Below the pieces are notes generated by a model, which was not told where the DNA came from, made no database searches, and saw only the letters and a program-made list of their open reading frames with translations. This document shows, in pieces, positions 2,872 to 14,223 of a stretch of 22,308 nucleotides of DNA. Origin of the DNA: an uncultured Pseudomonadales bacterium (lineage in GTDB: Bacteria; Pseudomonadota; Gammaproteobacteria; Pseudomonadales; Oleiphilaceae). The position numbers and the translations under genes are program-made. The stretch is taken from the NCBI GenBank assembly GCA_964514485.1, contig CAZEWG010000037.1:1-22308 (forward strand), written 5' to 3'. Every line of letters begins with the position of its first letter. Position 1 is the first letter of the stretch.

Positions 2872-2890
2872 GCAGAAACTGGTTTCTGCC
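2871..2890. terminator. Perfect GC-rich hairpin between convergent nrtR and the 369-aa gene (bidirectional terminator candidate)
   Basis: GGCAGAAAC-TG-GTTTCTGCC is a 9-bp inverted repeat at 2871-2890. It overlaps the nrtR TAG stop (2869-2871) and the stop of the minus-strand gene (2890-2892). No U tract follows on either side. Confidence 0.4.
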
Positions 2891-3999
2891 TAAGCAAGTG
2901 CGAATACAGCGCCCACAGCAAGGCCTATCGCGAAGTACCAGAGATAATGTATGGAGGACGCAGGTTTCGCAGTCTCATGAGCTGTTGGTGTCATCTGATC
3001 TGGCTTTGCAGTGGCATGGGCCATTGGGGGAGTCTGATCAGGTTCTGCAGTGTCAGAGGTCACTTGTATGGCTTGATCTGACTGTACAGGGATAGAGGGT
3101 GTCTGTGCTGGTCGATCCGGCTCCGGGGTGTCGCTAGCTATCTCGGCGGAGGGGGCCTGCTCCGTGGGGGCTTCGGTTGTCAGCATATCCAGCTCTGAGC
3201 GGATGCTGTTTAGACGGGGCTCGATGCTGTCGCTAGAGGACTTTACGTCCTCTAGAAGAGATTGAATCTCCCGTGACATGAATTCAATCTCCTCTGAAAG
3301 AGGCTCCACGTCGTTCTGGAGGGGAACGATATGGGTTTGGTGCCAGGTGTCCGCCAAGTGGGCAAGCTGTGGATTGAGGGATGAGCGGGTGACCAGTTCA
3401 ACAGTATGGCTTGCACAATGTCGGGCTAGAACTGGAGAATCATATTCGTCGCCTACAACCAACCAATAGCGCTCTGGCGGCAATAGCTCATCTTGCTCGT
3501 CCAGGGCTTGTACGCGCCAGATCTGGCCCTTAATATTATCAGCGCCTGATGGCCCTCTGAGTACCTCAATGAGCTCTGGATCCCTTACTGCCACGTTCCA
3601 GATCACCAGTATCCGCTCTCCATTGGCATTGTGGGCAACGGCATTGAACGCCAATGCTGAGATAATCTCGCTGGATATGACCGCGGGTGTTCCGGCCCAA
3701 CCTATTAGGATATCTTGGCGTGCGCACTCAAGAGCAAGGGCGTATAGCGGGAGCTCGTCCATGCCGACGGGGTGCTGGGCGTCTTTCCATTCCGTCAGAA
3801 ACTCTCGCATTTCCTCAGGGTCAGAGGACATATAGCCAATGCCGGCGTTAATCTTGTGAACGAACTCCCCCAGGAAGCTGGGGCGCTCACCTGGTTGAGT
3901 TATGGTGGCGACATACATGGGCATATCCCGCCACTTTTCCAGAAAACCGACAAAGCTTGCCTTAATATCGTCTTGAAATTTTAAAAAACCGGCGGACAT
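2890..3999 (-). CDS. Hypothetical C-terminally tail-anchored membrane protein: globular N-terminal domain, short coiled coil, Pro/Thr/Gln-rich repeat linker and a single C-terminal TM helix
   Basis: The 369-aa ORF has an ATG at 3999-3997 with an AAGGAA Shine-Dalgarno 6 nt upstream. Its C-terminus SSIHYLWYFAIGLAVGAVFALA is a clear TM segment. The preceding linker is TSDTAEPDQTPPMAHATAKPDQMTPTAHETAKP. I could not assign the roughly 240-aa N-terminal domain to a family. It is the last gene of the flotillin operon direction. Confidence 0.7.
   Translation of the reverse strand: MSAGFLKFQDDIKASFVGFLEKWRDMPMYVATITQPGERPSFLGEFVHKINAGIGYMSSDPEEMREFLTEWKDAQHPVGMDELPLYALALECARQDILIGWAGTPAVISSEIISALAFNAVAHNANGERILVIWNVAVRDPELIEVLRGPSGADNIKGQIWRVQALDEQDELLPPERYWLVVGDEYDSPVLARHCASHTVELVTRSSLNPQLAHLADTWHQTHIVPLQNDVEPLSEEIEFMSREIQSLLEDVKSSSDSIEPRLNSIRSELDMLTTEAPTEQAPSAEIASDTPEPDRPAQTPSIPVQSDQAIQVTSDTAEPDQTPPMAHATAKPDQMTPTAHETAKPASSIHYLWYFAIGLAVGAVFALA
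2994..3100 (-). repeat. Imperfect 39-40 nt tandem repeat (3 copies) encoding the PDQ(T/M)xP(M/T)AH(A/E)TAK linker repeats
   Basis: TCTGATCTGGCTTTGCAGTG at 2994, TCTGATCAGGTTCTGCAGTG at 3033 and TTGATCTGACTGTACAGGGA at 3073 show a 39-40 nt periodicity inside the coding region. Confidence 0.4.
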
Positions 4000-4147: not shown

Positions 4148-7100
4148 TTAGGAGGCGGGGTTGCCGTCTCCGCTGAAGGCGCCGCGCCGGCCATTGAGGT
4201 CAGTTCCCAAAGCACGCAGTTGCTCCATCAGCTCTCCCAGGCGCCGATAGGTGCGCACGTCAATGACCAGCTTGCCGTTCATGGCGCGGGCCAGTGGCTC
4301 GAAGCCGCTTTCCATGGTCGTGGTCAGCTTTTTAAGCATCTTGTCGAGGCCTGGAGCTGGCTGGTTAATGACTTCCACCCGGGGCTCCCGCTCCAGCAGT
4401 TGGGTGAGGCGATCCAGTAATGGCTCCATCAGTTCTTGCGGCAGCAGTGGGGGAGCCTCCTGGGACTCGGACTGGGCCCGTTCTGCCTGGGCGGCCAGGC
4501 TATTGAGCCCGGCCCGCAGGGCTTGAATCCCTTCCACGACGCCAATCAACTGGCGTACCACCCGGGCGCCTACATCCTCGTCGTCGCCCCCGGCGGACAT
4601 GCGGCGGCGGAACTCTGTCTTGATCTCTGTCCAGCGCTGTTCCTGTTCCGGTGTCATGTTGCCGCGCAGTTCGGCTAGTTTCAGCAGATTCTCCTCGGCT
4701 CCCGTGGTCAACAACTGGGCTTCGCCACGGTAGTGGTCGGCGATCAGTTGCATCAGCTCGGCCTCGGTCATCACTGAGGAGACCTTCTCCGCCATCTTGT
4801 TCATGTTGCGGTAGGAACCCTGCAGCTTGAACGGCGGCTCGGTGCGGTAGCTGTCGGCCTGGGCGCTGGAAGCGATATACTGCAGGTTGACCCTGAGGAT
4901 CACCTGCTGAATCACAAACAGCTTTTGCAGCACACTGACAATTTCCTGGCTTTCCGCCGCACTGTAGCTGTGGCTGAATTCCGTCGCGGCGACCGGCTTG
5001 CCTTGGGCCATATCCACAAAACGGTAGACGTCTTGCAGGTCACGGCTTGCCAGGGGGGCCAGCACCGGGTTGGAGGTGAGGGCGTTCTCGATGTAGCTCA
5101 GGGCAAAGGCTTCTTCGCTGCCCCCCAGTACGTCGCCGAGGTTGTACACATCGGCGCGGTTGGCGAGCATATCGGGAATGCGGAAGGTCTCGCCGGTTTC
5201 GGTGTAGGGGTTGCCGGCCATGACCACGCAGAATTTCTTGCCCCGCAGGTCATAGGTCTTGGCCTTGCCTTTCCACACACCTTCGATACGACGGGTGGCG
5301 TCACACAGGGAGATGAATTTCTGCAGAAACTCCGGATCCGTGTGCTGGATGTCATCCAGGTACAGCATCACGTTGTTGCCCATTTCCAGGGCCAGGTTGA
5401 GTTTCATCAGCTCCTGGCGTGCCGTGGAGTTACCGGCCTGGTCCGGGTCCAGGGAGCGGACTTCGTGGCCCAGGGAGGGGCAGTTGATACGCATGAACAC
5501 CAGCCCCAGGCGGTTGGCCACGTACTCCATCAGGGTGGTCTTACCGTAGCCGGGCGGTGAGATCAGCATCAGCAATCCCATGAGGTCGGAGCGCTTGTTA
5601 TCGCCCACCGTGCCCATTTGCTTGGCCAGGTTGTCGCCGATAATGGGCAGGTAGACTTCATTGATCAGCTTGTTGCGCACAAAGGTGGCAAGCGGTCGGG
5701 CCTTGAAGTCTTCCAGCCGCAGGCGTTCCCGTTCCCGCTGGAGAAACTGCAGGCGTGCGGCCTGGTAGCGCTCGAAGGCGGGAATGGTCACCGTCTGGTG
5801 GTGGGACAGGCGCTGGACAAATTCATCCAGCCGCAGCGTCAGGGTCTGGCCTTGTAGGTTGGGATGCTGCCCCAGCAGTCCGGTAATGGTCTGTTCCAGA
5901 TCCACTTCGCGAATATCCCTGGGGACCGGAATCTCCGCGGCCACCAGTGTCACGGCTTCATCCAGATAGTGCAGCCGTTCCGTCAGGCCTTCCCGTTTGA
6001 TCCAGGCGGCCAGCCAGGCAGTGGCCGTGGGCCAGGCACTATCTGCTTCACCTTCGGCGAATTTCAGGCTGTCGAGAAAGCCTTTCCACAGGCCAGCCTC
6101 CTGCAGGGAGTGGCGGAACTGTTCTGCCAGTTCGGCGGCGACATGGGTGGTCTCAAAGGCCAGGGCCTCTTTTGCCAGCTCCTCCACCAGATATTCGGCG
6201 GTCAGCGGTAAAGTCTCCGGGGCAAAGGGCAGATGGCGCTGTTCCACAAAGCTCTGCAGCCGGCTTTCCAGTTGGTTGACCAGGGCTTTGAAGGCTTCAT
6301 CGCTCCCCAGCCGCTCACGTAGCTGCACGGCGGAACGGGCCCGGTTGCGCCAGGCTTGGTTGTCCTTGTCGTGCTGTACCTGGGCCCAGTAATACACTGC
6401 CTGGGCCCGGACGGTGACCGGATAGCGCAAGGTGCCTGCTGCCCGGGCCTGGGGAATCAGCTGCTGCAGAATGAGGGCCGCGTCGTGGTCATGGATACCC
6501 CGTTCGTAGCCTTCCCGATAGCGGGGCCCGGCGTAGTCCCGTACCCGGGATACCAGGGCATCCAGGTTCTGGAGCTCTGCCAGGATCTCACTGCGCTTGG
6601 ATGCGAGTTCGCCTGCCTGTAACGCCTGCCAGAACTGATAGGCCAGGTATTCGGCCCGGTATACGCTGGTGGACTCTGAGGCCAGGGTCATGGTCCAGTA
6701 GGGCTTCAGCTCATTGAGCACCGGGTCGTCGACCACCTCGTAATAGTCGGTGCCGGTGAGGTGTTGGGCCAGGTGTTCACCCCGGGGTAGCAGCGTCAGG
6801 TCGACTTCCTGGGTGTTGACGCTGAACCGGTGGCGGGGCCCCAGCTTGATGACCTGGCCGCCTTCTTCGAAGATCTCCGCCTTATCCCGCAGGGCCCGCA
6901 CGCCCTGTTCGCGCATGGCCTTGAAGCGGGCGCTGAGGTCATCGGCCTTGACGGAGGCATCCAGCCCTTGCAGTTCTTCGATCAGCTGGCGCAGTTTGAG
7001 GATCAGCGGGTCGGAGGCGAAGAAGCTGTTAACTTCATCGGCCGTTTGGAACTTGTCCAGGCGCCGTTGCACGCTGGTGAGGATGCGGTTGGCGGCATCT

Positions 7101-9493
7101 TCCAGGTTCTGGGCCCGCTGCTGGCGGGCGTCCAGTAACTTCTGCTTGTGGGCCTCGAAGGCTTCGACGATTTCCTCGCGCTTGCCCAGGATATCCGCCA
7201 GGAACTGGTCGTAGTCGCTGAACTGGCTTTCCACTTCCTGCAATTGGGTGAGCAGGCGTGACAGTAGCTCATCGCAGCGATCCGGCGTATCCGCCATGGC
7301 CAGGGAGCTGGACACGCTTTGCTCCAGCAGGCGGAACTGGGCGGCGAACTGGGCTACGGCCTCGGCCGAGCCAATCTCCCGGCGCTTGTTGTCGGCGCGG
7401 GCCCGGCGCTGGTTAATCTGGGCATAGAGTTCGGAGACCGCGTCGATAATGCGGGTGCGGGTGGTAGCATCACCTTCCTGCAGGCCGGCAAGCAACTCCG
7501 ATACCAGCCCTAACCCTTGGGACTGCTGCTCGTACAGCTCGATGACTGCGGTAATCTGTTCCAGGGTCTGAGCCTCGGCCAGTTGCCCATCCAGCTCGGC
7601 CAAGGTCTTGTCATAGCTGGCCAGTGCCTGGGGCTTTGACAGGAATGCCAGGGTTTCTTTGGACAGGCGGGATTCCGTGGCGATGACCTGTTGTTCCAGT
7701 TGGTCGACGCGGGCCACATCCATATAACGATAGTCGCGGATGGTCAGCAGATGCCCCCGGTGACGGCGCAGTTCGGCCAAGGCGTCAATAAACAGGTCGG
7801 GACGGTCCCAGCTCTCCGGGCTGATCCGGCGCAGCAGGGCGGCCTGTGTCTGTTCCGCCTCGGCCAGGGCCTGGCGGGACTGCTGCTGGATGGCCTGGAC
7901 CTTTTCATATTCGTCGAGGATCAGCTCGCCGGTCTCGGCAATCTGTTTCAAGGCCTCGTCCAGACCGCCCAATTGTTCGGCCCCTAGCCAATGATAGGCG
8001 TCGAACAGCCGGGTAATGGCACGGATCAGGTCGTTGTAATGGCCGGGGCGGATATCCTCCTTGGCCATCATCCGTTCGATGCTGTAGAGCTCGGAAATTC
8101 CCCGCACCAGCTCGGCATTGCCGATTCTGCCGAGAAAGGTCTGTGAGCCACCGGCTTGGGCTGCGTGTTCCTCACTGAAGAAGGGAGTGCGCCAGATTTG
8201 CATGGCATGCACCCGGCTGGCTTCATCGGAAGCCTGCAACAGCACCAGGCGGCCATCGGGGAACAGGGCATAGCTGTGGCCCTGGATAGGGTTGGCCACA
8301 GCCTTATTGATAAGGTTGTAGGTGTGCAGGATCGCGCGGCCGTCTTCCGGGTGGTAGAACACGTACAGCACGTCCTCCCCGTTCGGGGAGACGATCCGTC
8401 GCTTAAAGCGGAAGCCGGCTGCATCCAGGTCAAACCGCTTGAGCTCACCAGTTTGCAGGTAGTAGCCGCTGGGATAAATGATGCCGTGATCTTCCGGCAA
8501 CTGCACGCAGGAGGCGCCAAGCTCGTCGATCCGTACCACTTCCCGGATCAGGCTGTTGTAGACGTAATGGCGTACCTGATCTTCCCGGTAAGGCTTGATG
8601 CGAACCAGGATCAAATTGCCCAGGGCGGCGTAATGGAACTCCGCGTCGTCCAGGGACTGGGTCTTGTCCTCGACCGGGTCGGCATAGATGCCCAGGCCCG
8701 TTTGGGTGTTGTTCTCCACCTTGAAGGTGATGTCACCCTGGATGTTGTCCACAAACAACTGATCCAGGATATTGATGTGGGGGTGACGCCCCTGCACGAT
8801 CTGGTCCCGGCCCACCGGGATCCAGTCAAAATCGGTTCGGGGCGGCAGGACCACATCCCGCTCGCCTCGGTTGTCCAGATACTCCAGCACCTCACCGGTA
8901 GGGGAGAGCGACCAGCGGAACACCCGGATATCCGATTCCTTTTCGCCAATACGGAAGTTGGCCAACAGCTTGCCGTCCCGTACTGCCAACTGCTGCAGCC
9001 AGGGGGCTTTGTAGAAGGTATAAAGCTCGGTGAAATCGGACTGGAACCGGCTGTTATCCAGAAAGCTGCCTTGCACCGGCTGGTGGATAAACTCCAACCC
9101 TTCCGGGCCTTCGTGCAGCTGGTACAGGGAGAAGACATCCTCCACCGCCGTGGTCTTCTGCAGGCCCTTGAAGACGTTGTAGCCCAGCAGGATGTACTGG
9201 CCGACCCGTACCGTATCCCTGGGGATGCAGTTGTGTTCGGTACGCGCCCGTGCCCTGCCGGTCACTTCCAGGCTGGTGCTGCCGAACTCCGCCAGGCGTT
9301 GCTGGTTCAGGTGCTCGATGCGCTGCTTGAGATCGCGGCCCTGCTCCAGCAGGCGGCGGCGAATCACTTCATAGGCGCCGCCCTGGGCGACGGCCTGGGA
9401 TACAAGGTCCTGTTGAATGTCCGAGGTCATGCCGAGTCCAGAAGAAAGGTTGTGAAATCGGTGGCGTTCCCTGAGAGGCGATGGTGATGCCAA
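4148..9493 (-). CDS. Giant (1781 aa) multidomain protein with an N-terminal beta-rich region, a central coiled coil, a single MoxR/AAA_5-like AAA+ ATPase module and a helical C-terminal region; no characterised family recognised
   Basis: A single uninterrupted ORF ends at a TAA stop at 4148-4150. The start is ambiguous. A TTG at 9493 has an AAGGG Shine-Dalgarno 8 nt upstream, and an ATG at 9430 (M22) has a poor Shine-Dalgarno. Walker A ISPPGYGKTT lies at about residue 1311 (nt about 5539-5565). Walker B is VMLYLDDIQH, sensor-1 is in VVMAGNPYTE, and an Arg-bearing IPDMLANRADVY motif resembles the MoxR LDRF region. Residues about 500-900 (nt about 6793-7993) are strongly helical with a heptad-like Q/E/L/A/R pattern. 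Confidence 0.8.
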   Translation of the reverse strand: MASPSPLRERHRFHNLSSGLGMTSDIQQDLVSQAVAQGGAYEVIRRRLLEQGRDLKQRIEHLNQQRLAEFGSTSLEVTGRARARTEHNCIPRDTVRVGQYILLGYNVFKGLQKTTAVEDVFSLYQLHEGPEGLEFIHQPVQGSFLDNSRFQSDFTELYTFYKAPWLQQLAVRDGKLLANFRIGEKESDIRVFRWSLSPTGEVLEYLDNRGERDVVLPPRTDFDWIPVGRDQIVQGRHPHINILDQLFVDNIQGDITFKVENNTQTGLGIYADPVEDKTQSLDDAEFHYAALGNLILVRIKPYREDQVRHYVYNSLIREVVRIDELGASCVQLPEDHGIIYPSGYYLQTGELKRFDLDAAGFRFKRRIVSPNGEDVLYVFYHPEDGRAILHTYNLINKAVANPIQGHSYALFPDGRLVLLQASDEASRVHAMQIWRTPFFSEEHAAQAGGSQTFLGRIGNAELVRGISELYSIERMMAKEDIRPGHYNDLIRAITRLFDAYHWLGAEQLGGLDEALKQIAETGELILDEYEKVQAIQQQSRQALAEAEQTQAALLRRISPESWDRPDLFIDALAELRRHRGHLLTIRDYRYMDVARVDQLEQQVIATESRLSKETLAFLSKPQALASYDKTLAELDGQLAEAQTLEQITAVIELYEQQSQGLGLVSELLAGLQEGDATTRTRIIDAVSELYAQINQRRARADNKRREIGSAEAVAQFAAQFRLLEQSVSSSLAMADTPDRCDELLSRLLTQLQEVESQFSDYDQFLADILGKREEIVEAFEAHKQKLLDARQQRAQNLEDAANRILTSVQRRLDKFQTADEVNSFFASDPLILKLRQLIEELQGLDASVKADDLSARFKAMREQGVRALRDKAEIFEEGGQVIKLGPRHRFSVNTQEVDLTLLPRGEHLAQHLTGTDYYEVVDDPVLNELKPYWTMTLASESTSVYRAEYLAYQFWQALQAGELASKRSEILAELQNLDALVSRVRDYAGPRYREGYERGIHDHDAALILQQLIPQARAAGTLRYPVTVRAQAVYYWAQVQHDKDNQAWRNRARSAVQLRERLGSDEAFKALVNQLESRLQSFVEQRHLPFAPETLPLTAEYLVEELAKEALAFETTHVAAELAEQFRHSLQEAGLWKGFLDSLKFAEGEADSAWPTATAWLAAWIKREGLTERLHYLDEAVTLVAAEIPVPRDIREVDLEQTITGLLGQHPNLQGQTLTLRLDEFVQRLSHHQTVTIPAFERYQAARLQFLQRERERLRLEDFKARPLATFVRNKLINEVYLPIIGDNLAKQMGTVGDNKRSDLMGLLMLISPPGYGKTTLMEYVANRLGLVFMRINCPSLGHEVRSLDPDQAGNSTARQELMKLNLALEMGNNVMLYLDDIQHTDPEFLQKFISLCDATRRIEGVWKGKAKTYDLRGKKFCVVMAGNPYTETGETFRIPDMLANRADVYNLGDVLGGSEEAFALSYIENALTSNPVLAPLASRDLQDVYRFVDMAQGKPVAATEFSHSYSAAESQEIVSVLQKLFVIQQVILRVNLQYIASSAQADSYRTEPPFKLQGSYRNMNKMAEKVSSVMTEAELMQLIADHYRGEAQLLTTGAEENLLKLAELRGNMTPEQEQRWTEIKTEFRRRMSAGGDDEDVGARVVRQLIGVVEGIQALRAGLNSLAAQAERAQSESQEAPPLLPQELMEPLLDRLTQLLEREPRVEVINQPAPGLDKMLKKLTTTMESGFEPLARAMNGKLVIDVRTYRRLGELMEQLRALGTDLNGRRGAFSGDGNPAS

Positions 9494-9570
9494 GGGCCGC
9501 CCTTGTTAGGGCGTGACCCAGGGAGCTCAAAGGTTTGGACTGCGCCCTCCAAAGGAGGGCACTAAGTGGC
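9494..9570 (-). promoter_or_regulatory. Two stem-loops in the 77-nt spacer between flotillin and the giant gene (possible attenuator or processing site)
   Basis: CGCCCTTGTTAGGGCG at about 9505-9521 has a 6-bp stem. GCCCTCCAAAGGAGGGC at 9543-9559 has a 7-bp stem. Neither is followed by a U tract on the minus-strand transcript. Confidence 0.3.
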
Positions 9571-11652
9571 TTAGCCGTCCGTGCCTGTGGTACCGGTGAG
9601 CTGGCTGCTGGCGGTTTTGACCACCGACTCCTTGCCACCGATAGCCAACAAGCGGTTCAGGGCTGCCTGGATGCTGGCATTGCGGGTTACGCCTTCCAGC
9701 CCCTTGCCCACTGATAGGCCCTTGGCGAATTGCTCGAAGTACTCGCCCTGGCCGCCGACGATTTCGATCTTGGCCTTCTGCAGCGCTGAGGACAGGACTT
9801 CGGCCTGTTCCTTGGCAATTTCCTTGTTGGCCTCGATGGACGCCATGGTTTCCTGAATGGCTGCATCCAGCTGGCGGGTCATCATCTCGAAGTCGCGAGC
9901 CTCGGGAGACATCTGGGCCATGGATTCGAACTTCTCCAACAGACCCTGAGCTTCTGCCTTGGCTTTCGCCAGCAGGGTATGGGCAGCCGCTTCGCCCTGT
10001 TCCCGTTGGCCCTTGGCCTCGGCCAGCAGCTTCTCTTCCAGTACCCGTGCTTCGACCAGACCTTCTTCCTCGATGGCTTTGGCCTTGGCCTTGATGATTT
10101 CGGCCTCTGCCATACCCTGTTCGCGCTGGCCCTTGGCCTCGGCCAGCATCCGCTCTTCCAGTACCCGTGCTTCGGCCATGCCTTCCTCCTCGAAGGCTTT
10201 GGCCTTGGCCTTGGTGACTTCGGCTTCCACCAGGCCTTCCCGCTCGAGGGCATCGGCCATGGCTTCTTTGACGCGGGCTGCTGCCAGGCCATCGGCCGCT
10301 TTCACCGCGCGGATACCTTCTGCCCGCTTGGCTTCGGCCAGGGCCCGCTTGTCGGCGGCTTGCAGTTCGGCTTCCGCCAGTACCTGGATTTCCCGGGCCT
10401 TGTGTGCGGCTTTCTGCTCTTCGGCTTCGGCCGCTTTCACAGCTTTGATCCGTTCTTCTTCTGCCTGGGCGGTGGCCTCGGTGATCTTCACCTGCTTCAG
10501 ACGCTCGGCTTCGGACAGTACATGGGTATCTTTGATCCGCTCTTCTTCTTCGGCCACTTTCTTCTCGGTGGCGATCCGCTCGCTGATAGTGACCGCAATG
10601 AGCTTGCGCTCTTCCTCCAGCGCCTTCTCTTTCTCGATGCGCTGCAGTTCCACTTCCCGCTCCCGGGTCACGGCTGCCAACTGGCGCGCTTTCTCCACGT
10701 TTTCAGCCTCGACCACCACGGCCCGCTCGCGGTTCTTGTCGGCCACTTCCACCTGACGGCGCTTGTTGGCTTCGGCAATCTCGATGGCCTCTTGTGCGGC
10801 AATGCGGGCTTCTTCTGCGCGACGACGCTCCTGCTCCCGCACGGTTTCCGCTTCGGCCTGCTCCCGGGCCCGGATCACTTCGATCTCACGCTGCTGCCGC
10901 GCCTGGGCTTCGGCCCGTTGTTTCTCGAGTTCCAGAAGCGCCTCGGTGGTGGCCGTATCCTTGCGGTCAATTTCCAGCTTCTGGTCGTTACGCAGGCGGT
11001 TGGTTTCTTCCGCCTGGGTTTTGACCAGTTCGGTCAGCTTGCGGATACCCTGGGCATCCATGGCATTGTTGGGGTCGAGCAGCTCGATGGGCGTCTGCTC
11101 CAGGTAGTCGATGGCCACGTCTTCCAGGATGTAGCCATTGAGGTCCTCGCCGATGGTCTTGACGATTTCTTCCCGGAACCGGATGCGGTTGTCGAACAGC
11201 TCCACAAACTCCAGTTGTTTGCCCACTGATTTCAGGGCTTCGGAGAACTTGGCATTGAACAGCTCGTTGACGGCTTCCTTGTTGGAGGCGCGGGCCACGC
11301 CTACGGACTTGGCCACCTTAAGCACATCTTCAGGCGTTTCATTGACGCGGATGTAGAAGGCGACCGTGATGTCGGCGCGGATATGGTCCTTACAGATCAG
11401 GCCTTCCTTGCCCCGCCGGTCAATTTCCAGGGTCAGCACGGAGATCCGCATGACTTCCTTTTTGTGGATAACCGGCCAGACCATGGCGCCGGTGAAGTAC
11501 ACCTTAGGCGTCTGGGATAGGTCGTTGACGATCAACGCCTCTCCCTGTTCCACCTTGACGTAGAACAGCTTGAACAGAAACAGCACAGCCAGAATGACGG
11601 CAAAGATGACGCCAACGGCCAGCAAAAATGGCAGCACAATAGACAAAGACAT
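9571..11652 (-). CDS. yqiK: Flotillin-family SPFH protein (YqiK-like), long form with C-terminal Ala/Glu-rich repeats
   Basis: The 693-aa product has an N-terminal TM/hairpin (LSIVLPFLLAVGVIFAVILAVLFLF) and an SPFH/band-7 core (EALIVNDLSQTPKVYFTGAMVWPVIHKKEVMRISVLTLEIDRRGKEGLICKDHIRADITVAFYIRV). A long EA-rich helical region with 40-aa tandem repeats follows. The ATG at 11652 has an AAGGAG Shine-Dalgarno 6 nt upstream, 29 nt downstream of the yqiJ stop. Confidence 0.9.
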   Translation of the reverse strand: MSLSIVLPFLLAVGVIFAVILAVLFLFKLFYVKVEQGEALIVNDLSQTPKVYFTGAMVWPVIHKKEVMRISVLTLEIDRRGKEGLICKDHIRADITVAFYIRVNETPEDVLKVAKSVGVARASNKEAVNELFNAKFSEALKSVGKQLEFVELFDNRIRFREEIVKTIGEDLNGYILEDVAIDYLEQTPIELLDPNNAMDAQGIRKLTELVKTQAEETNRLRNDQKLEIDRKDTATTEALLELEKQRAEAQARQQREIEVIRAREQAEAETVREQERRRAEEARIAAQEAIEIAEANKRRQVEVADKNRERAVVVEAENVEKARQLAAVTREREVELQRIEKEKALEEERKLIAVTISERIATEKKVAEEEERIKDTHVLSEAERLKQVKITEATAQAEEERIKAVKAAEAEEQKAAHKAREIQVLAEAELQAADKRALAEAKRAEGIRAVKAADGLAAARVKEAMADALEREGLVEAEVTKAKAKAFEEEGMAEARVLEERMLAEAKGQREQGMAEAEIIKAKAKAIEEEGLVEARVLEEKLLAEAKGQREQGEAAAHTLLAKAKAEAQGLLEKFESMAQMSPEARDFEMMTRQLDAAIQETMASIEANKEIAKEQAEVLSSALQKAKIEIVGGQGEYFEQFAKGLSVGKGLEGVTRNASIQAALNRLLAIGGKESVVKTASSQLTGTTGTDG
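9994..10233 (-). repeat. Tandem 120-nt (40-aa) direct repeat, two full copies plus a partial one, inside the flotillin C-terminal region
   Basis: ccctgttcccgttggcccttggcctcggccagcagcttctcttccagtacccgtgcttcg at 9995 recurs as ccctgttcgcgctggcccttggcctcggccagcatccgctcttccagtacccgtgcttcg at 10115. The encoded units are KAKAKAFEEEGMAEARVLEERMLAEAKGQREQGMAEAEII and KAKAKAIEEEGLVEARVLEEKLLAEAKGQREQGEAAAHTLLA. Confidence 0.6.
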
Positions 11653-12323: not shown

Positions 12324-12460
12324 TAGTCTTCCATTAGTCCGTCCCTCAGACAACTTATGTCAAAGTAGCCTTTACACATGAACCACGTCAACCCTCAAGT
12401 CGCAAAAAGTGATCCCATTCCGAAAAACAGCGACTTTTGAAGGAAAGGGATAAAATTTTA

Positions 12461-12490
12461 TTGACATAAATTGTCATAGTCGCCTAGTTT
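12461..12490 (+). promoter_or_regulatory. Candidate sigma70 promoter for the yjfI-yjfJ operon, overlapped by the inverted repeat TGACATAAATTGTCA
   Basis: A TTGACA -35 box lies at 12461-12466 and TAGTTT lies at 12485-12490 with an 18-bp spacer. An AT-rich upstream tract GGATAAAATTTTA precedes them. The 5-bp inverted arms TGACA/TGTCA at 12462-12476 overlap the -35 box and are a possible repressor site. Confidence 0.3.
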
Positions 12491-12608
12491 GTGAACAGGA
12501 CAGTTGATGTCGCTTTGCCAGAAAGGCCCATGCCGCAGTTCGGAAACTCACTGCCTGTCAAAGGACTGTTCAACGATTGAAGGCCACCATTGCAGAAGGG
12601 AGTTGCCA

Positions 12609-13016
12609 GTGAGCTTGCTACAAGACATGACGTTAAGCCTAGCGAATACGGTGTTCGAAGGACATCGGTTCGACTGCCTGCCCATCTCCGGCGAACAGGA
12701 AGTGCTGCAAGTGCAGGTTTCCGGACTGGAGGAAATGCCGATCTACGTGACGGTAACGGATACCCAGATTCTCTGTATCAGCTACCTGTTCAAGAAATCC
12801 GAGCTCAAGGAAGGCAGCATCAATGAACTCAATGCCTTGCTCCTTGAATTGAGCCTGCCCATGCCGCTCAGCAGTTTCGGCATGGTGGGTGATCATTATG
12901 TGATCTATGGGGCACTGGCCCTGACGGCGACTGCTGAACACGTGATGAAGGAACTGACCACCCTGGCCGGCAACGCGGTTGACGCGCTGCAAACGCTTGA
13001 GCCCTATCTGAAGTGA
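12609..13016 (+). CDS. yjfI: DUF2170 family protein (YjfI-like), the usual upstream partner of the PspA-like YjfJ
   Basis: A GTG at 12609 with an AAGGGAG Shine-Dalgarno 6 nt upstream gives a 135-aa product. The alternative ATG at 12627 gives 129 aa. The protein is acidic with a conserved-looking core (VLQVQVSGLEEMPIYVTVTDTQILCISYLF). It lies 112 nt upstream of the pspA-like gene, matching the E. coli yjfI-yjfJ arrangement. The ORF track's 12504 start adds a Cys/His-rich 35-aa extension, which I treat as leader sequence. Confidence 0.7.
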   Translation: MSLLQDMTLSLANTVFEGHRFDCLPISGEQEVLQVQVSGLEEMPIYVTVTDTQILCISYLFKKSELKEGSINELNALLLELSLPMPLSSFGMVGDHYVIYGALALTATAEHVMKELTTLAGNAVDALQTLEPYLK

Positions 13017-13128: not shown

Positions 13129-13821
13129 ATGAGTGTATTGCGCAAGATCTGGACTGCACTGCGGGGGAGCGCCCGTGAACTGGGTGATGCCGTGGTGGAC
13201 GCCAACAGCATCCGTATTTTTGAACAGGAAATTCGTGACGCCCAGGCTGCCATTGATGACTCCAAGCGGGCGCTGACAGGGGTGATGGCGGACAAGATGA
13301 AAATCGACCGTCGTCTTGCTGAGCTCAATGACCTGATTGCGGATGACGAAGCCAGTGCCGTTAAAGCGCTGGAGCAGGATAACGAGGCCCTGGCCCTGGA
13401 AGTGGCCCAGCGTATTGCCAAGCGGGAGGCTGAGCGTAAGGAGCAGTTTGAAATTGCTGAGCGCCTGGCCTCGCAAATTGCTTCGCTGCGCCAGAAGATT
13501 GATGCCGCCGAGAAGATCATTGCCGATCACCAACGGGAGCTTTCCATTGTGCGTACGACGGAAAGCGTGCAGAAGGCCACGGTCCAGATTGTCGATAACA
13601 TCGCTGCCCAGGACTCCACGCTGAGTTCGGCCCGCAGCTCCCTGGAGCGGATCAAGGCGCGTCAACAGCGGCTGGATGACCGCCTGGCCGCCGGTGAAGT
13701 GCTGGCCCGGGAGTCCGGTGAGCAGGCGCTGGATGAGAAGTTGAAGGCCGCCGGTATTAAAGGTGAAGCAGCGGATGCCAACGCAATTCTCGCCCGGTTG
13801 CGGGCCCGTGCTGAGTCCTGA
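13129..13821 (+). CDS. yjfJ: PspA/IM30 (ESCRT-III superfamily) membrane-stress protein, YjfJ-like
   Basis: The 230-aa all-helical coiled-coil protein begins MSVLRKIWTALRGSARELGDAVVDANSIRIFEQEIRDAQAAIDDSKRALTGVMADKMK, which is typical of the PspA/IM30/Vipp1 family. It has an AGAAGGA Shine-Dalgarno. Its length matches E. coli YjfJ, and it follows a DUF2170 gene. Confidence 0.9.
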   Translation: MSVLRKIWTALRGSARELGDAVVDANSIRIFEQEIRDAQAAIDDSKRALTGVMADKMKIDRRLAELNDLIADDEASAVKALEQDNEALALEVAQRIAKREAERKEQFEIAERLASQIASLRQKIDAAEKIIADHQRELSIVRTTESVQKATVQIVDNIAAQDSTLSSARSSLERIKARQQRLDDRLAAGEVLARESGEQALDEKLKAAGIKGEAADANAILARLRARAES

Positions 13822-13890: not shown

Positions 13891-14223
13891 GTGCCTGACC
13901 GTAACGATCGCTGGAAAAAGGAACGCGAGGCCATTCGGGCAACCCAGATAGCATTCGATCTTTCCATGGAGACCCAGTACAGTGTTAAACGGGCGGCGCT
14001 GGCTGAGCGGCTCAGCCCGCCCGACTATGTCCGTAAGCTGTTAGGCCTGCCCTATAACAAGCGTCCGGTGCGGCCTCGGTTGACGGTCACCTTTCGGCCG
14101 GAAGACTTGGAATTGCTGGGGCAGCGTTATGGCGTTGCCCCCAGTGATTTCATCAAGATCCGGGAGAGGGCGGCGGAAGAGTTGATCAAGGCTGCACAGC
14201 AAAAGGGTGGCGAAGGGCCATGA
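13891..14223 (+). CDS. Small hypothetical protein (110 aa), probably a tandem ribbon-helix-helix (RHH) DNA-binding protein
   Basis: The GTG start is immediately preceded by a GGAAGGAGG Shine-Dalgarno. Two RHH-like units are present. The first is RATQIAFDLSMETQYSVKRAALAERLSPPDYVRKLL and the second is RPRLTVTFRPEDLELLGQRYGVAPSDFIKIRERAAEEL. Each shows a strand followed by helix A, a turn and helix B. Confidence 0.6.
   Translation: MPDRNDRWKKEREAIRATQIAFDLSMETQYSVKRAALAERLSPPDYVRKLLGLPYNKRPVRPRLTVTFRPEDLELLGQRYGVAPSDFIKIRERAAEELIKAAQQKGGEGP

Follow-up and report, generated by a model that had tools for sequence, protein, structure and literature searches.

A giant DUF3686-family ATPase encoded behind YqiJ-like and flotillin genes: a candidate organiser of sub-membrane scaffolds

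The locus and the integrity of the gene

The subject of this work is the gene of a giant ATPase in a stretch of DNA from an uncultured Pseudomonadales bacterium (contig CAZEWG010000037.1 of assembly GCA_964514485.1); "the window" below means this whole stretch, 22,308 nucleotides long. The ATPase gene comes third in a conserved triad, in which a yqiJ-like gene is followed by the gene of a yqiK-type flotillin and then by the ATPase gene. An earlier note, made from the sequence of this DNA, described the protein and left the flanking genes unused, and it is there that most of the functional information sits. The triad and the divergent cluster next to it are as follows.

4148-9430, minus strand: giant ATPase gene, 1760 amino acids (the mechanical open reading frame reaches TTG 9493)
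9571-11652, minus strand: YqiK-type flotillin gene; transmembrane segment, SPFH/Band_7 domain and E/A-rich helical region, 693 amino acids
11682-12323, minus strand: gene of a YqiJ-like (NfeD-type) membrane protein of about 213 amino acids with a C-terminal beta domain, first of the triad
12504-13016, plus strand: DUF2170/YjfI (E 9e-34), divergent cluster
13129-13821, plus strand: PspA/IM30 of the YjfJ type (PspA_IM30, E 4e-34), divergent cluster
13891-14223, plus strand: small conserved 110-residue protein following PspA in the divergent cluster, with no Pfam match

The flotillin is recognized by its SPFH/Band_7 domain (E 7.8e-11) and by 30% identity to E. coli YqiK over 467 residues (E 2e-41). 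For the YqiJ-like protein, the plain BLASTP comparison with E. coli YqiJ is not significant (E 0.32), and the relationship is detected by the family profile (p223) alone, which matches E. coli YqiJ with an hmmsearch E of 5e-11 and an hhalign probability of 93%.

The minus-strand open reading frame 4148-9493 is present, with the stop codon at 4148-4150 and 1781 codons counted from the TTG at position 9493; residue numbers below follow this TTG-based frame of the earlier note. The database protein that is 100% identical to the window protein has 1760 residues and begins at the ATG at position 9430, and the homologues all start near M22; on these grounds, the true start is likely this ATG, giving a protein of 1,760 amino acids, and not the TTG at 9493.

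A sequence search found more than 3,900 homologues. The full-length ones among the matches listed are 1740-1805 residues long and colinear with the window protein, cover 97-99% of it and are 53-57% identical, the nearest non-identical relative among these matches having 57% identity. Because full-length homologues align over 97-99% of the protein, the alignments indicate a single gene and exclude a fusion of two genes by sequencing error, which the earlier note had named as one of the cases that would refute its reading.

Family and domain architecture

Pfam assigns residues 54-501 to DUF3686 (PF12458, "ATPase involved in DNA repair") with E 9.5e-189 and 628 bits against a cut-off of 25, and the match spans profile positions 1-448 of 448. 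DUF7902 (PF25472) follows on residues 622-706 with 78.7 bits against a cut-off of 26, and weak matches to AAA, AAA_5 and AAA_22 fall on residues 1306-1431. With DUF3686 at the N terminus, DUF7902 in the helical region, one C-terminal AAA+ module and end-to-end colinearity, the window protein is, as judged from its sequence, a typical member of the DUF3686 "DNA repair ATPase" family.

This family comprises 724 clusters at 50% identity; it consists of cytoplasmic-type proteins of about 1,600-1,900 residues, the intact clusters being 1,600-1,900 amino acids long with DUF3686 at the N terminus. Its common order is an N-terminal helix, a beta-propeller-like domain, a spectrin-like helical rod, an all-alpha middle domain, a single AAA+ module and a helical tail, and 67 diverse members, 33-52% identical to the window protein, align over the whole of it except the tail. 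The architecture, called unusual in the earlier note, is therefore not rare and is already present in Pfam and in the literature.

Two AlphaFold2 models built from 86-sequence alignments jointly cover the whole chain: model 1 spans residues 22-880 with a predicted local distance difference test score (pLDDT) of 86.7, and model 2 spans residues 861-1781 with a pLDDT of 79.6. Whether the query was the protein alone or a profile of 40 family sequences, sequence searches against the PDB gave P-loop-level matches only (Rix7, RuvB; E >= 0.006), so the family is without a solved relative; NCBIfam and PADLOC searches of the protein gave nothing useful. The parts of the protein, all on the minus strand, are the following.

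9284-9427: N-terminal long helix (residues 23-70; AlphaFold2 model 1)
8189-9268: beta-propeller-like domain (residues 76-435; about 27 strands in AlphaFold2 model 1), core of DUF3686
7991-9334: Pfam match to DUF3686 (residues 54-501)
6872-8173: helical rod (residues 441-874) of 13 helices of 10-58 residues, spectrin-repeat-like
7376-7630: Pfam match to DUF7902 (residues 622-706), inside the rod
6731-6799: small, highly conserved three-stranded beta element (residues 899-921; AlphaFold2 and conservation)
5612-6658: all-alpha middle domain (residues 946-1294), predicted very confidently by AlphaFold2, without a Pfam or PDB match
6482-6499: GIHDHD motif in the middle domain (residues 999-1004)
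5129-5584: AAA+ alpha/beta core (residues 1304-1455; AlphaFold2 model 2, Pfam and motifs)
5534-5560: Walker A, SPPGYGKTT (residues 1312-1320)
5342-5371: Walker B, VMLYLDDIQH (residues 1375-1384)
residues 1403-1414: pre-sensor-1 hairpin (AlphaFold2 model 2)
5156-5215: sensor 1 N1428 and candidate Arg finger R1446 (alignment)
4592-5128: AAA+ lid and conserved helical domain (residues 1456-1634) with the invariant FKLQGSYRNM motif at 1555-1564
4568-4591: acidic GGDDEDVG patch (residues 1635-1642)
4151-4567: variable, low-confidence helical tail (residues 1643-1781), in the Pseudomonadales-type subfamily only

The beta-rich character of the N-terminal region, for which the earlier note had suggested a propeller- or sandwich-like fold, is borne out by the modelled strands, by DUF3686 and by a Foldseek search against the PDB, in which the top-ranked matches of the beta domain are nearly all propellers (WD40, paraoxonase, prolyl oligopeptidase and clathrin heavy chain, the terminal domain of which is a propeller). 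These matches have E values of about 1e-6 and a probability of 1.0, yet their TM-scores are at most 0.32. Among the conserved residues of this part of the protein are E304, R308, E373, D374 and H429.

The region of residues 500-900 is helical, as had been proposed, but the almost uninterrupted, heptad-rich, SMC-like coiled coil of the earlier note finds no support. It contains 6 Pro and 17 Gly, turns break its helices in the AlphaFold2 model, and the best fold-search matches of the rod are spectrin repeats. Neither the model nor the fold search revealed a hinge, a zinc hook or a long antiparallel coiled coil in the rod, the longest helix having 58 residues, and there is no split ABC head. A crude a/d-heptad test on the rod performed no better than on shuffled sequences, a test of low power that also missed the helical region of the flotillin.

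In the all-alpha middle domain, G999, H1001, D1002 and D1004 of the GIHDHD motif are at least 95% conserved in a set of 68 sequences (the 67 diverse full-length members and the window protein), and no known domain was detected there. Such a pattern of residues may mark a metal-binding site.

As the earlier note stated, there is one AAA+ module: Pfam and AlphaFold2 place a single P-loop core at residues 1304-1455, and neither the models nor the fold search yielded a second P-loop domain, the remainder of the protein being propeller-like or all-alpha. The general features of an AAA+ ATPase are all found in the sequence, namely the Lys and Thr of Walker A, the acidic pair of Walker B, sensor 1 and the Arg. 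In the same set of 68 sequences, at least 95% conservation is reached by Walker A from S1312 to T1320 (including K1318 and T1319), by D1380, D1381, I, Q and H1384 of Walker B, by G1427, N1428, P, Y and T around sensor 1, by P1440, D, M, L, x, N and R1446 (x being variable), and by the post-AAA motif F1555-x-LQGSYR-x-M1564. Among 40 close homologues, the mean column identity is highest in the AAA+ region (residues 1262-1461, 0.91-0.96), about 0.8 in the propeller, 0.54-0.85 in the rod and 0.24-0.66 in the extreme tail.

Two features of the module deserve mention: the acidic pair of Walker B is a conserved DD, which is unusual, DE being customary, and the loop after beta2 carries no aromatic pore-loop residue, as seen in the sequence and in model 2.

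The protein ends, as the earlier note had it, in a helical tail with an acidic GGDDEDVG patch; the patch lies at residues 1635-1642, and its place "within the final 320 residues" is no special position. The residues G-G-D-x-x-D-x-G of the patch are at least 90% conserved among close homologues, AlphaFold2 confidence falls beyond about residue 1640, and the last 120 residues or so have no alignment outside the Pseudomonadales-type subfamily.

The data on the rod and on the AAA+ module bear on three alternative explanations. In the first, the protein would act like MoxR as a chaperone that matures some different membrane client, a respiratory or transport complex for example; it would use the flotillin microdomain as a working platform, and the scaffold would not be its substrate. 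AAA_5, a subfamily that also holds the MoxR, midasin and dynein modules, is indeed the best full-length Pfam AAA match (28.6-31 bits against a cut-off of 22), the missing pore-loop aromatic fits, and the NPxxExGxxxxxPxxLxNR stretch presumably resembles MoxR sequences. AAA_3, the model of MoxR proper, however, reaches 16.7 bits against a cut-off of 27, no VWA/MIDAS partner was found in the window reading frames scanned or among the conserved neighbours, and no client candidate other than YqiJ, flotillin and PspA is conserved across lineages; the structural neighbours of the AAA+ core are AAA+ modules that do not discriminate between the MoxR and HCLR types. The "MoxR/AAA_5-type" of the earlier note thus holds for AAA_5 and is not established for MoxR in the strict sense, against which the DD of Walker B also speaks, and we consider a MoxR-like chaperone possible but on balance unlikely.

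The second alternative is a mainly structural sub-membrane skeleton, built of a spectrin-like rod and a propeller, in which nucleotide binding acts as an assembly switch and not as a motor. It would account for the resemblance of the rod to spectrin repeats, for its moderate conservation, which is consistent with a spacer, for the DD of Walker B and for the very large size of the protein. Against it stand sensor 1 and the candidate Arg finger, at least 95% conserved and, in AAA+ oligomers, needed for hydrolysis, and the fact that no other part of the protein is as conserved as the AAA+ region. We consider a mainly structural role distinctly unlikely.

The third is the one suggested by the database names, a true DNA-repair ATPase of the SMC/SbcC/RecN type. 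Only these names and the Pfam title favour it. The Walker A and B motifs are about 60 residues apart within one AAA+ fold near the C terminus, the hinge, the hook and the long antiparallel coiled coil are missing, neither a nuclease domain nor one that binds DNA is detected by Pfam or NCBIfam, and the conserved neighbours include no nuclease that could serve as a partner. The sole repair-related match is a 40-residue P-loop alignment to RuvB (E 0.006-0.03), and the conserved gene context is entirely membrane-related. A role in DNA repair is barely conceivable on these data, and the "DNA repair" label of the DUF3686 family is misleading and not to be trusted.

Conserved neighbourhood and flanking sequences

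Gene context was compared in a sample of 80 related loci from one-genome-per-species contigs, belonging to Gamma- and Betaproteobacteria, Myxococcota, one metagenome-assembled genome of Clostridia and one of Eremiobacterota. In 77 of the 80 loci, the immediate upstream neighbour is a flotillin gene in the same orientation, the remaining 3 being cut by the contig end, and in 73 the YqiJ-like gene shares this orientation. PspA is a neighbour in 33 loci, in 28 of them upstream on the same strand, and DUF2170 in 19-23, depending on the E-value cut-off. The triad is often joined to the YjfI(CesT-like)-YjfJ(PspA) envelope-stress module.

In some lineages, further co-directional genes are added downstream, 0-2 kb from the ATPase gene: PLDc_2 in 15 loci, TelA in 15 (Xanthomonadales) and rhomboid in 11. 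All of them are membrane- or envelope-related, and none is present in this window.

Individual replicons give the same picture. In Streptomyces, the flotillin gene is followed by a "DNA repair ATPase"; in Hymenobacter, the order is "chaperone Tir", PspA, DUF1449, a 722-residue protein and the ATPase, and Deinococcus shows the order of Hymenobacter. The Pseudomonas plasmid pQBR103 carries one co-directional array of PspA, rhomboid, DUF2491, DUF350, DUF1190, a glutathionylspermidine-synthase-like gene, YqiJ-like, SPFH and ATPase, in which YjfK/L/M/C homologues stand between PspA and YqiJ-like. Among the genera with family members are tractable ones such as Pseudomonas, Stenotrophomonas, Proteus, Vibrio, Streptomyces and Myxococcus, and the family is present on some megaplasmids.

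A large multidomain NTPase beside "phage shock" and membrane genes, found on some megaplasmids and followed in some lineages by a PLD-family gene, could also be part of an anti-phage or conflict system, in which the giant ATPase would sense membrane damage and trigger a response. We regard this as very unlikely: PADLOC gave no match, the DUF3686-type ATPase is absent from 50,697 phage records, the core triad has no obvious effector, and the gene order is stable across phyla, unlike that of defence islands. Elsewhere in the window, the neighbouring genes (NrtR, isochorismatase, Na+/H+ exchanger and LysR) are of the housekeeping kind.

Several observations concern the sequences around the ATPase gene. 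Between the flotillin and ATPase genes, a GC-rich hairpin, gccctcc-ttt-ggagggc, lies at 9544-9560 on the minus strand, 11 nucleotides past the flotillin stop and 113 nucleotides before the ATPase ATG, with no T-run after it; it could act on mRNA stability or by attenuation and so set how strongly flotillin is expressed relative to the ATPase.

The yqiJ-like gene and the divergent YjfI/PspA cluster share the intergenic region 12354-12503. At 12462-12476 it holds an inverted repeat without mismatches, TGACA-TAAAT-TGTCA, which overlaps a TTGACA hexamer and is a possible operator. Scans for sigma-70 and sigma-54 promoters and for terminators found nothing above chance, this region included. Homologues of the 110-residue protein encoded at 13891-14223, with 40-49% identity, stand next to PspA in 11 related loci, and the protein may serve the YjfJ-type PspA module as a small regulator or as an accessory.

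The flotillin, at 693 amino acids, exceeds E. coli YqiK by 140 residues. Positions 10001-11000 of its gene show a strand bias (AT skew -0.50, GC skew -0.15), for which the most likely cause is the E/A/K-rich helical repeats of the protein; these include a tandem duplication of about 50 residues (AEARVLEE…LAEAKGQREQG, twice).

Directly downstream of the ATPase gene, at 2890-3999 on the minus strand, lies the gene of a 369-residue protein that ends in a hydrophobic tail anchor and contains repeats rich in P, T, Q and A (…TAEPDQTPP…TAKPDQMTP…), for which Pfam, NCBIfam and PADLOC gave no match. As a fourth component of the operon it was rejected, being absent from 80 of 80 related loci. At 1216-2871, an NrtR-type regulator (Nudix and NrtR winged helix) stands beside a divergent isochorismatase-family gene; the pair looks like an NAD (nicotinamide adenine dinucleotide)-salvage regulon unrelated to the ATPase.

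Interpretation and comparison with known systems

Gene integrity, domain order, conservation of the nucleotide site and linkage within the operon are established here. The explanation we favour is that the giant ATPase uses ATP to remodel or organise flotillin/PspA scaffolds beneath the membrane and is not a DNA enzyme, and we hold it to be probable, though by a modest degree. The expectation of the earlier note that a mechano-enzyme is likelier than a housekeeping, protease-type AAA+ protein agrees with it.

In the mechanism that we propose, the AAA+ modules would oligomerise, and the rods would extend the propellers, to which the flotillin assembly in the cytoplasm and/or the ESCRT-III-like polymers of PspA would bind. 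ATP binding and hydrolysis would then assemble, remodel or dismantle the sub-membrane scaffolds during membrane stress or repair. We infer from gene context and structure prediction how the protein oligomerises, what it binds and whether its reaction runs towards assembly or disassembly. The family can credibly be put forward as the energy source behind flotillin/PspA scaffold dynamics in bacteria.

A number of points weigh against this explanation. E. coli and Shewanella carry yqiJK without the ATPase, so the latter is an accessory to flotillin and not its obligatory partner, and PspA is adjacent in only 41% of the loci. The DD of Walker B may mean that hydrolysis is slow or switch-like and, together with the absence of the pore-loop aromatic, it makes threading in the manner of Vps4 or Clp doubtful, as far as the sequence and the model indicate; the two features are no argument against a remodelling role. 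Two apparent gene fusions look like gene-calling run-ons and were rejected as evidence: P0172 (NfeD1b_N and DUF3686) has an Arg/Pro-rich nonsense linker such as wrong-frame run-ons in high-GC DNA commonly give, and P0250 (flotillin C terminus and DUF3686) has a linker of the same kind. Finally, a search of the literature found no experimental study of any member of the DUF3686 family.

The knock-out phenotypes of Shewanella SO1376/SO1377 are not transferable to the present locus: they concern a two-gene yqiJK unit that is followed by a predicted terminator and contains no ATPase gene.

It should be noted that neither the operon class nor the idea of scaffold dynamics is new, both being known from comparative genomics since 2024. 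Ravi et al. 2024 (PMC11237479) described this very class of operon, including a "Betapropeller+Coiled-coil+AAA-ATPase" protein, proposed a role in sub-membrane dynamics, gave this architecture for Dokdonia in their table and found the shorter operons without PspA to be more widespread. Our literature searches found no paper naming DUF3686 or PF12458, none connecting a "DNA repair ATPase" with flotillin and none connecting YqiK/YqiJ with an ATPase. What is gained here is a clear operon context and a list of conserved residues.

Large cages and polymers are now recognised as the form that flotillin and PspA/Vipp1 assemblies take in bacteria. In B. subtilis, an SPFH protein is required for PspA localisation (PMC8581546), and according to a 2025 review, bacteria appear to lack a Vps4-like ATPase (PMC7619361). 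For the dismantling or recycling of such assemblies, an obvious candidate is a giant AAA+ protein that, across at least seven phyla, is tied to flotillin wherever the sequence upstream can be read and is frequently tied to PspA as well. We can tentatively suggest, as a possibility considerably weaker than the general explanation above, that the family is the missing bacterial energy source for PspA/flotillin scaffolds, a non-homologous counterpart of Vps4, in which the propellers would grip the polymer or cage and the AAA+ ring would drive its disassembly and turnover in membrane repair.

Comparison with well-studied ATPases separates the window protein from most of them. Dynein and midasin, to which the earlier note had likened it, have six concatenated AAA+ modules in the chain and the window protein has one, so the analogy does not hold. 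McrB is a GTP-specific AAA+ protein with the McrC nuclease as partner, a description that the window protein does not fit. With SMC, SbcC and RecN it shares large size, a helical middle and the database name; these proteins have a split ABC head, whereas the window protein is of the AAA+ type, has neither hinge nor hook nor a nuclease partner, and stands among membrane genes. From the MoxR group (NorQ, CbbQ, RavA; AAA_5/AAA_3) it is set apart by its score below the AAA_3 cut-off and by the lack of a VWA partner.

FtsH within the SPFH cage of HflK/C is a case of an SPFH scaffold paired with an AAA+ machine. FtsH is membrane-anchored and has a protease domain; in the window protein, no protease domain was found, its Pfam matches being limited to DUF3686, DUF7902 and AAA-type families, and no hydrophobic membrane segment was seen in the translation by eye, none having been formally predicted. 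With Vps4/ESCRT-III of archaea and eukaryotes, the likeness lies in an AAA+ protein genetically linked to a protein of the ESCRT-III superfamily, here PspA, and both systems may remodel a membrane-bound polymer; the window protein lacks the N-terminal MIT domain and the aromatic pore loop 1 of Vps4 and classic-clade AAA proteins.

Closest to the locus is the operon class of Ravi et al. 2024 (PMC11237479), with which it shares the domain order, the length class, the upstream YqiJ-like and flotillin genes and the PspA/YjfI genes next door. The YqiJ-type gene and the gene of a transmembrane/Band_7 flotillin are immediately upstream on the same strand, and the YjfI-PspA dyad, which belongs to the extended form only, is adjacent. 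The window protein carries the C-terminal extension of about 120 residues of the Pseudomonadales-type subfamily, and the YjfI-PspA pair is divergent here and not co-directional; the essentials are identical.

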